Source of the DNA: Escherichia coli
GTDB lineage: Bacteria; Pseudomonadota; Gammaproteobacteria; Enterobacterales; Enterobacteriaceae
Reading direction: 5' to 3' (one strand)
DNA: 64,000 bases
Assembly: GCA_032372955.1 (NCBI GenBank)
Contig: GCA_032372955.1_4725.1
Made by a program: the position numbers and the translations under genes
Notes under the pieces: generated by a model
What the model saw: only the letters and a program-made list of their open reading frames with translations
Told to the model about the DNA's origin: nothing
Databases searched by the model: none
Shown: piece after piece, positions 44,457 through 55,723 of the stretch
How positions within the stretch are numbered: position 1 is the first letter of the stretch
How the letters are laid out: each line of letters starts with the position of its first letter

Positions 44457-45434
44457 ATGGCTTCTGTTGGCCCAATCGATAAGACACGCGATGCGGTAAA
44501 GGCGTTGCTCGAAAGAATTTATTTTGAGCTTGCGAATGCCGAACATCCAAGCGTGAGTCTTTTCGATGATAAACTCACAGCGATTAATAACGTTCATCCA
44601 ATGCTGTATCAGGATCTCCTTACGTCGTGGAAACCGATGGGTGTTTTCGCGAACGCTTTTTCAGATACCGTCGTAGCCAGCGGCTTTGAAAAACCGAAGC
44701 TACCTTTTGTCTATGAGCCGTCGGTCGATCCAAGACGGGAGCGTCTGGGTGTTTTAACGCACGCTCTGATTGACAGTATTGGTTATTATCTTTCCTCTGA
44801 ATGGACAGCTAAATATACCGAGCTGTTAGACGAATACGAGCTGTGGCGTAATCAGATCTTAACGGATGCGGAGAAGAAAGCATACGCGATCGCGTTGGCG
44901 GAGAAAACCCGCGGGGACGTTGGTCGCTTAATCCACGATTTTTACGCGGTTTTGAAACCAACCTACTACGAAACAAAACGTCAACTGACCTGGGAAGAAG
45001 CACAGGCGTTGATGCAGAGCGCAGAAACAGCGGATGATATTTCGGGTATAATCCACGATTACTGTATGTCAAGAATCCTGCTGGATAAAGGCAATCAGAA
45101 ATACGTTCGTGAGGTTCCGCTTCCCAATAACGCGATGGGGATCGCAAACGAGATTTTCGAGTTCCTGAACGAATGGAATCCGCCGTTACTTGCGATTACG
45201 TATATCTGCGATGATATTCTTACCGAGGATCTGTTCCTTCCATTGTTAGGTGAAGCGTCGCTGCGACGTTATTCCCAGACGTTCAAGAACAGCGCAACGA
45301 TGGCATCGACCGTACCGGTTAGTTTACCACGTCGTCGTAAAATGCTTACGGTATCCGCTGGCAAGATTAACCTCTTAGTGTTGTATTATGCTGTAAGAAA
45401 CGGCCTGCCAACATTAATTTTCAGGAAAAAGTAA
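44457..45434 (+). CDS. hypothetical protein
   Basis: ORF track; RBS ACGAGGATAA upstream. Confidence 0.65.
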   Translation: MASVGPIDKTRDAVKALLERIYFELANAEHPSVSLFDDKLTAINNVHPMLYQDLLTSWKPMGVFANAFSDTVVASGFEKPKLPFVYEPSVDPRRERLGVLTHALIDSIGYYLSSEWTAKYTELLDEYELWRNQILTDAEKKAYAIALAEKTRGDVGRLIHDFYAVLKPTYYETKRQLTWEEAQALMQSAETADDISGIIHDYCMSRILLDKGNQKYVREVPLPNNAMGIANEIFEFLNEWNPPLLAITYICDDILTEDLFLPLLGEASLRRYSQTFKNSATMASTVPVSLPRRRKMLTVSAGKINLLVLYYAVRNGLPTLIFRKK

Positions 45435-46851: not shown

Positions 46852-49902
<3,051 letters not shown>

Positions 49903-49906
49903 GAAA

Positions 49907-50227
49907 ATGGGTAAATGTTGGACGGATAAAGAAGATGAAGCGTTGCTGCTTATTCTTAGCACGTCACCAAAAGCGAGTTATAAAGAAGTAGCACGTTGCA
50001 TGAATCGAACACCATGTTCTATTCGCGCACGTTACATCAGGTTGAGGAAACGACGTGGTGATCTACCGCCTCGCGGGGGAGCTTACACACCCGAAGAAAG
50101 GGTTAGGATTACCATGCTTGCAAAGAAACATACCCTAAAAGAAATTGCTGAAATAATGAATCGTAGCGTACACGCCATCCGGTGTTATTGTTTTCGAAAC
50201 AAGATATCGCTTAAAGTAAGACGTTGA
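49907..50227 (+). CDS. Myb/SANT-like HTH protein, tandem paralog 1 of 6
   Basis: WTDKEDEALL plus HTH-like TLKEIAEIMNRSVHAIR. Confidence 0.55.
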   Translation: MGKCWTDKEDEALLLILSTSPKASYKEVARCMNRTPCSIRARYIRLRKRRGDLPPRGGAYTPEERVRITMLAKKHTLKEIAEIMNRSVHAIRCYCFRNKISLKVRR

Positions 50228-50239
50228 TGGGGTGGCACT

Positions 50240-50707
50240 ATGGTCAAGGACTGGACACCCGAAGAAGACGCGATATTGATTACCCTGTACCGAAACGGTA
50301 TCCCGATGCAAGAGATTGCGGCACGGCTTGACCGAACAGAAGGTTCGGTTCAAGGTCGAATTAACCGTAATCGCAAGCGCTGGAAACTCATGTCGCGTCA
50401 CCGCTATTGTTGTTTCGAAGAACGCGTGATGTTAGCCGATTATCTTAAGACGCATAGCGTAAAAGAAGCTGCAGCGATGTTCAACCGTAGCGTGGACGCA
50501 ATCGCTAAACTCTGCTACCGTTACGGTATTGTTGCATGCAAAGCGCAACGTCGAGAGATGATTTATTATCGAATACATACGCTTAGAAAAGAGAATAACA
50601 CCTGGGAGAGAATACGGAATATCATCAATAACGAATTTAACACCCATTACACGTTAAGCGGTGTTCATAGCCTCTACTACACTCAAGCATTAAAACGCGT
50701 AGAATAG
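50240..50707 (+). CDS. Myb/SANT-like HTH protein, tandem paralog 2 of 6
   Basis: WTPEEDAIL plus SVKEAAAMFNRSVDAIAKL. Confidence 0.55.
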   Translation: MVKDWTPEEDAILITLYRNGIPMQEIAARLDRTEGSVQGRINRNRKRWKLMSRHRYCCFEERVMLADYLKTHSVKEAAAMFNRSVDAIAKLCYRYGIVACKAQRREMIYYRIHTLRKENNTWERIRNIINNEFNTHYTLSGVHSLYYTQALKRVE

Positions 50708-50720
50708 GAGAAATCTCGTT

Positions 50721-51224
50721 GTGAAACCTCCAGTACGACGATGGAATCGTAAGGATGATGAACAGTTGCTGGAATTGTACTATCGTCACCCGAAATTAAA
50801 AATCCGTGAAATCGCAGAAATCATGGAAACAACGTACGGTGCAATTAAATCGAGGTTGATATACTTAAATGTTGAACGTCGTAAACCGCATAAACGTTTC
50901 AGTGTCGATGAGTTGGAATACATCAGAGTGCACTGCAAACACAAAAGTTACAAACAACTCGCACGCGATTTAAACAGGGATCCAAACAGTATTAGAACGA
51001 TTGCACACCGTCATGGTTTCAAGCGGTTAAGCGAGGCTGATACTAAGATCTTCATAGCCTTCGTTGATACATTGTTAGAAGAAACACAGGATTGGCACCA
51101 CATTGCTGAACGGGTTAATGCGCATTTCGGTATAACACGTACGAAGCAGGCTGTCTATCAGCGTTGGTGGCATCATAGAAAGAAAAGAGGGATACAAGAT
51201 GGGACGATCTCGACCGTGGCGTGA
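50721..51224 (+). CDS. Myb/SANT-like HTH protein, tandem paralog 3 of 6
   Basis: WNRKDDEQLL plus SYKQLARDLNRDPNSIRTI; GTG start. Confidence 0.5.
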   Translation: MKPPVRRWNRKDDEQLLELYYRHPKLKIREIAEIMETTYGAIKSRLIYLNVERRKPHKRFSVDELEYIRVHCKHKSYKQLARDLNRDPNSIRTIAHRHGFKRLSEADTKIFIAFVDTLLEETQDWHHIAERVNAHFGITRTKQAVYQRWWHHRKKRGIQDGTISTVA

Positions 51225-51702
51225 CGACGAGCTGAAAGATGTTACGCATCTGTATTTGAACACATCGATGACGATTGATGAAATCGCGCAACGGACAGGG
51301 CGAACACGCGCCAGCGTCGACGCGCGTCTGGGGCGTTTGGGAATACGTCAACGTCAAAAGCATCGGCCGTATACGGAAGAAGAACGCACATACATCAAGT
51401 CGGTAATCAAACAAAAATCGCTGAGGGAGATTGCGTACGATTTAAACCGTTCGTATGACTCGGTTCGTCAGTTTATACGGCTTAATAGAATTCGTCGTGC
51501 GCTAACCAAGCAAGAACGGGAAGCGATTATCGCGTTTATCGCGGAACGACTTAACGTTACCCAAAATTGGAATGTTATCACATACGACGTTGTTGTTAAA
51601 TTTGGGATTACAACGAATAAACATGCGTTGTATCAACGTTGGTGTTACTACACGAAAAACAAAGGAGCTGCCTATGCGCAAATACCGTCGCTGGACAGAT
51701 GA
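51199..51702 (+). CDS. Myb/SANT-like HTH protein, tandem paralog 4 of 6
   Basis: WRDDELKDV plus SLREIAYDLNRSYDSVRQF. Confidence 0.55.
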   Translation: MGRSRPWRDDELKDVTHLYLNTSMTIDEIAQRTGRTRASVDARLGRLGIRQRQKHRPYTEEERTYIKSVIKQKSLREIAYDLNRSYDSVRQFIRLNRIRRALTKQEREAIIAFIAERLNVTQNWNVITYDVVVKFGITTNKHALYQRWCYYTKNKGAAYAQIPSLDR

Positions 51703-52204
51703 GGAACTCTCACGCCTCGAGAATTACGCGGACCAGATACCCAGACCACCGGTTAGTGAGCTGGCTGCTGTATTTCAACGCACAGAAAGCGCGATTAAGA
51801 ATAAGTTGTATATGTTGTTCCCTTCGATGAGAACCAATGAGGCATATACAGACAACGAGATTTCCTATATTCGCGACAATATCCACAGATACTCGGTTAA
51901 ACAACTGTCAAATCATCTTGGCCGATCGAGAGCGAGTGTCGCCTCCGTAATACGACGACTTAAGCTACGTCGATACGACCCAGATGAATGGTGCAAAATT
52001 TCAGACCGTATTACAGCACTTCGACGTGAAGGAGTTAACTGGAGGGAAGTTGCTCGCATTATCAGCGTCGAGTTCAAACGGGAGTATCGTCACACACATC
52101 TTTGTCAGCGTTACTATTATAACACACGTGGTAAGAAATGGCAGCAGGTAAAGAATACACAACAACCGAAATCGCATTCATACGCCGAAACGCGGGCGTC
52201 ATGA
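51674..52204 (+). CDS. Myb/SANT-like HTH protein, tandem paralog 5 of 6
   Basis: WTDEELSRL plus SVKQLSNHLGRSRASVASV; start ATG 51674 with RBS AAAGGAG. Confidence 0.55.
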   Translation: MRKYRRWTDEELSRLENYADQIPRPPVSELAAVFQRTESAIKNKLYMLFPSMRTNEAYTDNEISYIRDNIHRYSVKQLSNHLGRSRASVASVIRRLKLRRYDPDEWCKISDRITALRREGVNWREVARIISVEFKREYRHTHLCQRYYYNTRGKKWQQVKNTQQPKSHSYAETRAS

Positions 52205-52644
52205 CATCGAAAGAAATAGGTGAAGCGTTAGGACGGAGTCAGAGAGCAATTAGCGCGATTGCTTCAATGCTTAACATCAAACTGAGTCATCGTAATCGGA
52301 ACGATATTTTATCGCGGGTTGTCCATTTACGTGATGGCGAGAACCGTCGATGGCGGGAGATCATTACCATCATTCAGGATGAGTTTGATGTCACGTATTC
52401 CGAATCGGGACTACAGCGTGGATATCAACGCGTGAAGCTCACGACGATAAAGAACACCGATCCTACTCGTCTTCGTATGTTAAATGAAATCCATCGTTAT
52501 CGGCAATACGATAAACTTCCATGGAAAGAGGTGCAAAAACGTATCGAGGTGCGTTACAACAAACATTATCAAATCACAACACTTTGTCAAATGTACCGAC
52601 GTCATCGTAATCGACTGTTAGGTAATGAGGGAATTTTAGCATGA
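52138..52644 (+). CDS. Myb/SANT-like HTH protein, tandem paralog 6 of 6 (start uncertain, overlaps paralog 5 in another frame)
   Basis: YTTTEIAFIRRN plus TSKEIGEALGRSQRAISAI. Confidence 0.45.
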   Translation: MAAGKEYTTTEIAFIRRNAGVMTSKEIGEALGRSQRAISAIASMLNIKLSHRNRNDILSRVVHLRDGENRRWREIITIIQDEFDVTYSESGLQRGYQRVKLTTIKNTDPTRLRMLNEIHRYRQYDKLPWKEVQKRIEVRYNKHYQITTLCQMYRRHRNRLLGNEGILA

Positions 52645-53174
52645 GCATCAAAACAGTAGTTATTAATGAACGGCCGTTCTATTGCGTTATCGCCTCAACG
52701 GCCGCCGATCCACACCTTTACCCACATAAACGACAGATTCGTGAGCTGTACCGTATTCTCGACGACGTAGAATCAGAGGCATGGGCTACCACGTTTATGT
52801 TTGAGAATATCCCCGATTTAAAACGCGAGTACGATGCCTTAGAACTAGAAAAGCGTTTACCAGACACCGCAAAGTTGGTCGTTATGATCGACGCCATCGC
52901 TTCGATGCCGGTAGGCCTCTTGGAAGTGAATATAGAGAGCCATATGGGTATTCATGACGTTACATCGATTATTGTAAAACCCGAATATCGCGGACGTGGT
53001 ATCGGCCACGCCTTGATGAACGAAGCACGTAACATCGCTTACCAGTGCGGTGGGCATTCTATTGGCCTGGATGTTCGTGCCGATAACGCTGAAGCCCAGG
53101 CGTTCTATGAGTCTGAGGGTTTCACGGTAAGATCGTCCTGGTTAACATCGTCCGTAAAACAGAAAGGAGCTTAA
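52641..53174 (+). CDS. GNAT-family N-acetyltransferase
   Basis: Motif A VKPEYRGRGIGHALM and C-terminal AQAFYESEGF. Confidence 0.65.
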   Translation: MSIKTVVINERPFYCVIASTAADPHLYPHKRQIRELYRILDDVESEAWATTFMFENIPDLKREYDALELEKRLPDTAKLVVMIDAIASMPVGLLEVNIESHMGIHDVTSIIVKPEYRGRGIGHALMNEARNIAYQCGGHSIGLDVRADNAEAQAFYESEGFTVRSSWLTSSVKQKGA

Positions 53175-53175
53175 C

Positions 53176-53604
53176 ATGAGCTGGTTCGATCGTAAATTCT
53201 TCACGTTGGAAGAAGTCTTGAACCTACCTTGCGACGCGAATAAGGAAAAGATCGCCGACATGCAACGAATCGCATTAACTCACGCGATTAATGATGTCTC
53301 ACAGTTCTCTATCGGTGATCGTGTTGAGCTTCCGTTCGGAACCGGCGAAGAAGGAGATAACACAGCGGTTAAATTCGTTCCCGCTGTTGTCGTGGGTGTC
53401 CATTTCACGGCATCACAAGTCAGTTACGACCTTGCGATACCTATCGACGGTTGTGACTTGTTTATGGTCTTCAACAATTTCCGTGGTGATATGCGCACGA
53501 TAGACGGAAGCAATGCGACCGATTTCATCGAGAAACGTGTTGCCGAGGCGTTGGTGAAGAAAACGCTCGGTACGCCGAATCTTAAAGTTATTGAAAATGA
53601 ATAA
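53176..53604 (+). CDS. hypothetical protein
   Basis: ORF track. Confidence 0.6.
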   Translation: MSWFDRKFFTLEEVLNLPCDANKEKIADMQRIALTHAINDVSQFSIGDRVELPFGTGEEGDNTAVKFVPAVVVGVHFTASQVSYDLAIPIDGCDLFMVFNNFRGDMRTIDGSNATDFIEKRVAEALVKKTLGTPNLKVIENE

Positions 53605-53653: not shown

Positions 53654-54304
53654 ATGAACGACGTTATTGCATTAGTCACGCAAGGCGAAACCAAAATGCC
53701 GTTGCCGTACCAGCAGCTTGCTGCTATCTTAGAACCAATGACGCACCATCAACAATGGATCGTGCGTGAAGAATATACCCAGCGCATCGGGTGGTCATTG
53801 TTAACCATGGATACCGCGCTCCAGTTAGCGAGCATCTGTTACGGGCGACGCGTCGCTGACCTGGGTTGTGGGACGGGTTACCTGACTTACGTGTTACGTA
53901 AACTCGGTGTTGAGGATATTACCGCGTACGACATCGCAATACATCCCCATCCGTTTATTGATGATATCCAGCAAGCGGACTACACAAACATCGATCTTTC
54001 ACAGTACGACGTTATTTTACTGTCGTGGCCACCTTACGACAAACCACAAGCGGCATTGGTTGCCGCACGTATTCAACCTCACCAGCTTTTGGTCTATCAG
54101 GGTGAAGGATACGGAGGCTGCACTGGAGATGACACCTTCCATTCGATGCTTCGTTCGGATTTTGCCTCTGTGGAAGAATTCACCGTTAACTTAAATGCAC
54201 GTCATTTGAACTTTTACGGTATATACGACTCATGGACGGTTTATCGCAAGCAATCAGAATTTACAAAACAAAAGGATGATTTGGAAGATATGCGTCATGA
54301 ATGA
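53654..54304 (+). CDS. class I SAM-dependent methyltransferase-like protein with noncanonical SWPPY motif
   Basis: Motif I VADLGCGTGYLT; downstream DVILLSWPPYD resembles amino-MTase motif IV (D/N/S)PPY but with Trp before PP. Confidence 0.5.
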   Translation: MNDVIALVTQGETKMPLPYQQLAAILEPMTHHQQWIVREEYTQRIGWSLLTMDTALQLASICYGRRVADLGCGTGYLTYVLRKLGVEDITAYDIAIHPHPFIDDIQQADYTNIDLSQYDVILLSWPPYDKPQAALVAARIQPHQLLVYQGEGYGGCTGDDTFHSMLRSDFASVEEFTVNLNARHLNFYGIYDSWTVYRKQSEFTKQKDDLEDMRHE

Positions 54305-55045: not shown

Positions 55046-55645
55046 ATGACAGTGGTGAGTATTACTGAGCCGCGGTTTATCCGCGAAGTTATCGACCGTC
55101 GTCGATCGGTGATCGTTGCTTACGGACGAATGGAAAGTACCGCACCTCAAGAACTTTGCGTGCTATTCCAGGGGTGTTTCGTACACCGACAGGAAGGCCA
55201 TAAGGGTAAAATCGTTCCTGGTGATTTGATTAAAGCGATGCGTAAGATCGATGTTGAACAACGCAAGCTGAATCTGTCGCATCGTCTGCCTCCCCTCGAT
55301 GAGGCCGAAGCCAAAGACTTCGCCGATCGGGTTATGAAATCAGCTATCGTTCAGTACTTCGGAAACATGCCAAGCAAACGTAATAAAGCCTTACATGTTG
55401 AATCCGATCAGCTGCTTCATTGGAATTCGAAAGCGTTCCGATTCGAAGAGGTGTTCTTACCCACTTTCGGTAAACGGTTGGCGTGGGACTTTTCAACAGA
55501 GTATGTTTACAGCGGAGACATCCCGCCAGAAATACAACATAAGAAAGGGAAAGTACTAGAAGAGCAAACAGAAGCTGCAGTCATCGAACAGGTTTACCAG
55601 CGTCTGACATTCTGGTTGTTCGGACCAATACTGGAACCTAAGTAA
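55046..55645 (+). CDS. hypothetical protein
   Basis: ORF track; RBS AAAGAGGG upstream. Confidence 0.6.
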   Translation: MTVVSITEPRFIREVIDRRRSVIVAYGRMESTAPQELCVLFQGCFVHRQEGHKGKIVPGDLIKAMRKIDVEQRKLNLSHRLPPLDEAEAKDFADRVMKSAIVQYFGNMPSKRNKALHVESDQLLHWNSKAFRFEEVFLPTFGKRLAWDFSTEYVYSGDIPPEIQHKKGKVLEEQTEAAVIEQVYQRLTFWLFGPILEPK

Positions 55646-55723
55646 AACATTACATACACCAAATAACTTTTTAATACCGGGTAAATCCTCCTTATCTAAA
55701 CATATTTCAAAAGGACAGTAATC

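Follow-up and report, generated by a model that had tools for sequence, protein, structure and literature searches.

In this study, we examined a window of 64,000 nucleotides (nt), by which we mean the whole stretch of DNA analysed, from assembly GCA_032372955.1, and focused on six genes (g1 to g6) at positions 49907-52644 of its + strand. Judged by their sequences, these are paralogues from an ancient duplication, and they represent a lineage-specific expansion of a known kind of DNA-binding phage protein with multiple helix-turn-helix (HTH) units. That the six proteins bind DNA is very probable. Beyond this, we favour with moderate confidence the reading that they are tandem-HTH proteins which would bind double-stranded DNA (dsDNA) sequence-specifically and would probably help to regulate transcription and/or replication of the phage in an accessory role, acting on phage DNA; we infer their sequence specificity, their regulatory role and a target in the phage genome instead of the host's. 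The region from 49000 to 53500 aligns end to end with Escherichia phage vB_EcoM_Goslar at 96.1% nt identity, which marks the window as a close relative of Goslar (Goslarvirus), a nucleus-forming chimallivirus and jumbo phage of E. coli. In line with this, other parts of the window encode what a Goslar-like phage should carry, namely split RNA-polymerase beta/beta' subunits, helicases and an exonuclease. The genes g1-g6 correspond one-to-one to Goslar gp119-gp114. Part of the picture was already available from RefSeq, where gp119 is named 'SANT/Myb domain-containing protein' and the other five 'hypothetical protein', with a note on gp115 recording weak similarity to a Streptococcus phage transcriptional regulator. 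New here are the unit architecture, the link to the phage T5 protein D5 together with the shared ligase synteny, a corrected start for g6, and cassette-like mosaicism.

All six proteins match PHROG 323, 'transcriptional regulator, D5-like' (E 1e-19, 6e-18, 1e-14, 9e-18, 2e-20 and 8e-10 for g1 to g6, covering profile positions ~93-270 of 319), which bears out an earlier proposal, made from the letters alone, of a local expansion of a shared family. Pairwise BLASTP gave 22-37% identity and 42-89 bits for most pairs, g3/g6, g4/g6 and g1/g6 being weaker; the original prediction had put identity by eye at 30-40%. When a hidden Markov model (HMM) of the family was run against the 743 six-frame open reading frames (ORFs) of the window, it matched g1-g6 and no further member elsewhere, a pattern well outside what chance would give. 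Alignment of g1-g6 with their orthologues defines the units, each of ~50 residues and three helices. Unit A carries the motif W-T/R-x-E/D-E/D-x-x-L ... E-I-A ... R-T-x-x-S/A-I/V, unit B the motif Y/F-T-x-x-E ... K-E/Q-I/L-A ... N/G-R-S-x-x-S/A-I/V, and unit C the motif W-x-x-I ... E/H-F ... L-x-Q-R-Y/W. By hhalign, units A and B are homologues (E 1.7e-9); homology of unit C to either is not demonstrable by sequence, though unit C of g3 passes the Pfam threshold for Myb_DNA-bind_6 (27.3 bits, residues 104-151).

The six ORFs lie consecutively and partly overlapping on the + strand, exactly as had been predicted. The first, g1 (49907-50227, 106 amino acids (aa), gp119 orthologue), is a truncated member with units A-B only. 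It is followed by g2 (50240-50707, 155 aa, gp118 orthologue), g3 (50721-51224, 167 aa, GTG start, gp117 orthologue), g4 (51199-51702, 167 aa, gp116 orthologue) and g5 (51674-52204, 176 aa, gp115 orthologue), all of which read A-B-C, g5 with a short tail in addition. The last and most conserved member, g6 (52138-52644, 168 aa, gp114 orthologue), reads B-C-C'. Each protein had been described as carrying a W-T/N-x-E-E-D-x-x-L unit, an HTH-like segment (S-x-K-E-I-A-x-x-L-N-R-S-x-x-S/A-V) and usually a third W/Y-containing unit. The HTH-like segment is present in all six as unit B, with a related copy in unit A. The first of these features was found in five of the six, since g6 has no unit A and begins with unit B (Y-T-T-T-E-I-A-F-I), and the third was found in g2-g6, duplicated in g6, but is absent from g1.

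Profile searches and structure prediction agree on a shared domain with a DNA-binding fold. The AlphaFold models show three trihelical bundles with the HTH formed by helices 2-3 (for g6, the AlphaFold2 model has nine helices and a predicted local distance difference test score of 78), and their best structural matches are the GcrA DNA-binding domain, Tc3, Myb/SANT and Cbp2. Profile matches to sequences in the PDB include Cbp2 (2lvs, E 8e-9) and c-Myb (E 2e-5). Among Pfam families, g1 reaches 35.7 bits for Myb_DNA-bind_6 (cut-off 22.9) and 32.6 bits for Myb_DNA-binding (cut-off 24.4). Sigma70_r4_2, HTH_23 and HTH_28 exceed their thresholds among g2-g4: g2 scores 34.3 bits for Sigma70_r4_2, the region 4 HTH (cut-off 25.7), 27.4 for HTH_28 and 26.8 for HTH_23, and g3 and g4 score 27.3 and 27.5 bits for Sigma70_r4_2. 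The Myb families (PF00249, PF13921) remain below threshold in g2 (16.7) and g5 (18.5) and do not match g4 or g6; no Pfam family at all reaches its cut-off in g5 and g6. The label 'Myb/SANT-like', which holds by Pfam for g1 and for unit C of g3, therefore fits the array only loosely, given also that the three-tryptophan signature is missing and that T5 D5 is the nearest phage relative to have been characterised. Indeed, the proteins resemble c-Myb R1R2R3 in their tandem ~50-residue three-helix units, yet they do not conserve the three tryptophans that recur at regular spacing in Myb repeats: unit A has one W, unit B Y/F, and unit C W...F...Y/W at a different spacing.

Other known systems, phage 'GcrA-like' proteins among them, are similar only in part. 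Although the DNA-binding domain of Caulobacter GcrA (PDB 5yiu; PF07750) is among the best structural matches, the Pfam score is ~14 bits against a cut-off of 26.9, profile matches stop at about position 60 of 155, and the C-terminal parts are further trihelical units rather than a sigma-70-interacting domain; moreover, the domain is repeated in tandem in the Goslar-like proteins. With archaeal Cbp1/Cbp2 (2lvs) they share a tandem-HTH architecture and a profile match, but NCBIfam HTH_Cbp1 gives 20.0 and 16.1 bits against a cut-off of 140, the host lineage differs, and there is no CRISPR context. By analogy with tandem Myb repeats, the bipartite domain of Tc3 and Cbp1/Cbp2, each protein would form a chain of three homeodomain/Myb/GcrA-like three-helix HTH units on short basic linkers, in which consecutive units would place their third helices in successive major grooves and so read an extended site. 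It is improbable, in our view, that the six are instead SANT/Cdc5-like modules for a protein or RNA partner, such as the multisubunit RNA polymerases, mRNA export or components of the nuclear shell. Myb-like domains of the SANT and Cdc5 types can have protein or RNA, not DNA, as their ligand, but the best matches here (GcrA DNA-binding domain, Tc3, c-Myb, Cbp2 and D5) all bind DNA, and the strong positive charge (isoelectric point (pI) 9.7-10.4, net charge +11 to +16 in all six) and basic linkers fit nucleic-acid binding.

Transcription modulation, a guess in the original prediction, is still a guess, though the relationship to D5 now gives it a better frame. T5 D5 (T5.118), which gives PHROG 323 its name, matches that profile at E 1e-71. 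The profile of the six proteins matches a 23-sequence D5 alignment with a probability of 95.6% (E 1.2e-8, 96 columns), units A-B pairing with residues 134-235 of D5 (hhalign), a protein of 255 aa with, by eye, four HTH-type units. On this comparison, the six are distant relatives of the C-terminal HTH pair of D5. According to the T5 record, D5 binds DNA, is needed for both DNA replication and late transcription, and takes part in shut-off. In T5 (L012, record 66538-68077) its gene directly follows ligA/ligB, overlapping the end of ligB. Likewise, and possibly by coincidence, g1 directly follows the NAD-ligase gene in three Goslar-like relatives (L002, L006 and L009), and in the window the NAD-dependent DNA ligase (47133-49208, +) lies upstream of the array. 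The two systems therefore have in common multi-unit HTH proteins, the same PHROG, and a gene directly downstream of an NAD-dependent DNA ligase. They differ in that the array encodes six separate proteins of 106-176 aa with two or three units and a pI of ~10, without the N-terminal units of D5 and hence without its full four-unit architecture, while D5 is one protein and by eye much less basic; unit C, in addition, is not demonstrably the equivalent of the last D5 unit. Whereas D5 is conserved in T5-like phages, the six-gene array is confined to Goslar-like phages. Both this distant kinship with the D5 HTH pair and a position that, as for D5, comes immediately after the NAD-ligase gene and within the replication region make an accessory regulatory role the most likely one: the proteins would act on DNA transactions of the phage itself, in transcription class switching and/or replication, and presumably on phage DNA inside the phage nucleus.

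The six are real genes under purifying selection. Relative to Goslar, the ratio of non-synonymous to synonymous substitution rates (dN/dS) ranges from 0 to 0.26 without any stop codon (g1 0.21, g2 0.13), and the g6 protein is 100% identical to that of Goslar with nine synonymous and no non-synonymous changes. Relative to the more distant L002, dN/dS is 0.07-0.24, and reading frames are intact in every relative examined. These observations bear on an origin from mobile elements, in which the genes would be free-standing DNA-binding modules that outlived the decay of HNH homing endonucleases and now do little or nothing. The A-B pair does correspond to the N-terminal part of the phage HNH endonuclease families phrog_1891, 8446, 7545 and 3377, and resembles endonucleases of other jumbo phages by fold; g1, moreover, is eroding. 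However, the matches to the first three families cover only the N-terminal 80-120 profile positions, no Pfam HNH match was obtained in the six proteins, and an HMM search of the window recovered no remnant of a nuclease. Together with the purifying selection and intact frames, and with the common C unit and conserved gene order, which indicate tandem duplication and not independent insertions, this makes such an origin very improbable.

Occurrence in HNH endonucleases, and in a protein that combines a helicase with nine repeats (P0039), is rather the pattern expected of a DNA-targeting module. The A/B repeat is in fact widespread: a search of 1.84 billion cluster-representative proteins returned 9,197 matches at E <= 1e-3, P0015 and P0044 being further examples. 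Most of the matches are 300-900-aa proteins with 3-10 repeats, some of them enzyme-fused. These long bacterial and phage proteins share the same 'W-T-x-E-E-D ... I-A-x-x-L-G-R-S' repeat with g1-g6, but in the array the repeats are spread over six short stand-alone genes, and g2-g6 end in the distinct C unit. Of the 150 best-scoring proteins, only six, of 154-176 aa, match across A-B-C, and the traceable ones come from Goslar-like contigs. A tblastn search with g5 against 50,697 deposited phage records returned Goslar alone, and IMG/VR only Goslar and one relative. In these searches, the short A-B-C form did not turn up outside Goslar-like phages.

As to how the array has evolved, the original prediction had called it old or fast-evolving, and our data support the former. 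No DNA-level similarity exists between the paralogues apart from their physical overlaps, and relatives whose ligase lies at a synonymous divergence (dS) of ~1.3 from the window keep 1:1 orthologues, of those present, in the same order; the duplications must therefore be old. L002 has six orthologues in the same order at 57% to 90% identity to the window, and its g1 orthologue (h1) is full length (152 aa, A-B-C), which implies that g1 of the window lost its unit C. L005 has five genes and no g1. Its identity to the window is 70, 51, 39 and 48-50% for g2-g5 but 94% for g6 and 85-99% for the flanking genes, and DNA homology to L005 is lost from 49923 until 52153, bracketing g1-g5 exactly. Among relatives, g6 hardly varies at all. 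Furthermore, dS relative to L002 is 0.25-0.39 for g2 and g5 but >2 for g1 and g3, and relative to L005 it is saturated for g2-g5. Since dS varies gene by gene and is saturated alongside dN, these differences mostly reflect exchange of divergent alleles at the scale of single genes or cassettes, and not accelerated evolution in place. Positive selection as the cause of divergence between relatives was considered and is unsupported, dS being saturated where dN is high and dN/dS being 0.07-0.24. Such mosaicism is general in the region and not unique to the array, as the orthologues of gp122 (46852-47136; 66-67% identity to relatives) and gp111 (53654-54304; 58-73%) are also sharply divergent among neighbours at 85-99%.

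Within this divergence, the third helices are 0.69-0.72 identical within orthologue groups against 0.20-0.27 between paralogues. Even between divergent relatives, a given paralogue retains third-helix sequences of its own, so that the six would probably recognise six different sites. This has consequences for the idea that they are low-specificity, histone-like architectural proteins covering or condensing phage DNA, with six copies as dosage or temporal variants. T5 D5 has classically been described as an abundant, cooperatively binding dsDNA protein, which would favour such a role, as would the small size, basic linkers and very high pI and net charge of the six; the T5 record itself says only 'DNA-binding'. 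Nevertheless, paralogues of 22-37% identity that each retain their own third helix point to distinct specificities rather than dosage, and gp114-gp119 go unmentioned in the supplementary files of the Goslar virion study. We regard this possibility as distinctly unlikely.

Unlikely too, though less so than an architectural role, is a host-directed takeover function, in which the proteins would bind host DNA early and in the cytoplasm, or compete with sigma-70 region 4 at promoters or RNA polymerase, and thereby silence host or defence genes before the chromosome is destroyed. The scores of g2-g4 above the Sigma70_r4_2 threshold are in its favour, and accessory, lineage-specific, mosaic genes are typical of host-interaction functions. 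Entry into the chimallivirus nucleus requires a specific import route, so that the cytoplasm would be the default location, which also counts for a host-directed role. T5 D5 expressed alone in E. coli, furthermore, is mildly toxic (PMC13405049). On the other hand, most of the host DNA has been degraded by 60 min of Goslar infection (PMC9891218), which would limit any host-directed action to early times. There is also no sigma region 2 or other RNA-polymerase-binding module: no Pfam Sigma70_r2 match was obtained in any of the six, and NCBIfam sigma models gave 13-22 bits against cut-offs of 43-320. Finally, six conserved, distinct paralogues in the replication region fit phage-directed roles at least equally well.

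Accessory regulation on phage DNA remains the reading that we prefer, and several points, to which the capacity of some Myb-like domains for protein or RNA binding belongs, weigh against it. Transfer of function from D5 is weak, because the match covers two of the four D5 units, because HTH repeats attract one another in profile comparisons, and because D5 is, by eye, much less basic. The array stands outside the conserved chimallivirus gene set and is found only in Goslar-like genomes, and hence cannot be a core transcription or replication factor. In addition, g1 is absent from L005 and has lost its unit C in the window. A search for enriched 7-mers in 34 intergenic gaps recovered Shine-Dalgarno-like words only and no candidate binding or promoter motif. 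Lastly, we found no publication on g1-g6 or gp114-gp119 in the Goslar/Myb literature, the main texts of a few jumbo-phage papers or the supplements of the Goslar virion study.

To our knowledge, nucleus-forming jumbo phages, which have sigma-less RNA polymerases, lack any known specificity factor for transcription or replication. Six conserved and distinct predicted DNA-binding paralogues beside the ligase gene are thus obvious candidates, with D5 as a concrete functional model. In its boldest form, this idea would make the array a split and diversified D5-like switch, in which six sequence-specific factors would programme a sigma-less, nucleus-enclosed genome, each directing the phage RNA polymerases or replication machinery to different sites, and in which cassette turnover would be driven by host sensors of HTH proteins, much as the type IX retron Kva2 senses T5 D5. 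We consider this full version speculative and improbable. The HTH of D5 has been reported to bind the multicopy single-stranded DNA of a type IX retron and to trigger it (2026 preprint, PMC13405049), and as its fold is a reported retron trigger, such proteins may be a contact point with host immunity. If the bold version were true, no dedicated specificity factor for transcription or replication would have been described in a chimallivirus before, and the array would exemplify defence-driven diversification of a phage DNA-binding family. If the six are ordinary accessory regulators, the result is a modest gain in annotation for Goslar-like phages, including the corrected gp114 start. In addition, mosaicism from gene to gene makes the array a natural experiment in the diversification of phage DNA-binding families.

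Gene boundaries within the array deserve some comment. Neighbouring genes overlap by 26 nt (g3/g4), 29 nt (g4/g5) and 67 nt (g5/g6) or are separated by gaps of 12-13 nt (g1/g2, g2/g3), and a Shine-Dalgarno-like purine run lies upstream of each of the six starts, being AGGAGA before the GTG of g3. For g5, the mechanical ORF starts at 51572, and we set the start at 51674 based on the Goslar annotation, the paralogue alignment and an AAGGAG Shine-Dalgarno sequence. For g6, by contrast, we depart from the Goslar annotation, in which gp114 begins at an internal ATG and has 147 aa; the long form begins 63 nt upstream (window 52138-52200; L001 9139-9201). Helix 1 of the AlphaFold2 model (residues 9-18) precedes the Goslar-annotated start, and the long form restores helix 1 of unit B. 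Its start has a better Shine-Dalgarno context (GGTAAGAAATG) than the internal ATG, a 71%-identical orthologue has Leu at the position of the internal Met, and in L005 the N-terminus is conserved even without an overlapping g5. For these reasons, sequence comparison and model together place the true start of g6 at 52138.

The array could also be imagined as a single long repeat gene, either broken up or joined by read-through or frameshifting. This was rejected, because each gene has its own start and Shine-Dalgarno sequence, the frames differ except for g1/g2, and the boundaries are kept in orthologues. The shared frame of g1 and g2 (50225-50239) is interrupted by the g1 stop codon and four codons, so that read-through would fuse them; we found no evidence of g1-g2 read-through.

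Between the ligase gene and g1 lies the gp120 orthologue (ORF 49195-49902, 235 aa), a clean presence/absence insertion of 711 nt (window 49193-49903) that the window shares with Goslar and L005 but that L002, L008 and L009 lack; where it is absent, the ligase gene adjoins g1. This ORF matches nothing in Pfam, PHROG or NCBIfam and occurs or is missing irrespective of the state of g1; we rejected it as part of the array system. A tRNA scan of the window found none. A scan for sigma-70-type promoters returned fewer promoter-like sites than in shuffled sequence, which is no surprise in a phage that brings its own polymerases.

Further differences among these phages were seen around the array. The window has no homologue of Goslar gp108, owing to an indel of ~340 nt (window 55645-55692 against L001 12645-13032), while L005 keeps one. 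L009 is a Goslar-like phage contig (AASNJI010000001.1, 198,944 bp) within GCA_012441205.1, an assembly labelled Escherichia coli; its g5 orthologue is intact, yet missing from the called genes. Between the gp125 and gp124 homologues, several Goslar-like relatives have a D12-class N6-adenine methyltransferase gene (L002 904-1728; L004 902-1728; L006 714-1540; L009 1-373; corresponding to window ~45851) that is found in neither the window nor Goslar, and its split into two ORFs (176 and 113 aa) in L004 and L006 suggests a frameshift. Upstream, 44457-45434 encodes the orthologue of Goslar gp126 (97.8% aa identity), a 'collar filament' protein of the virion neck (2026 preprint), which places a structural gene just upstream of the ligase/HTH block.

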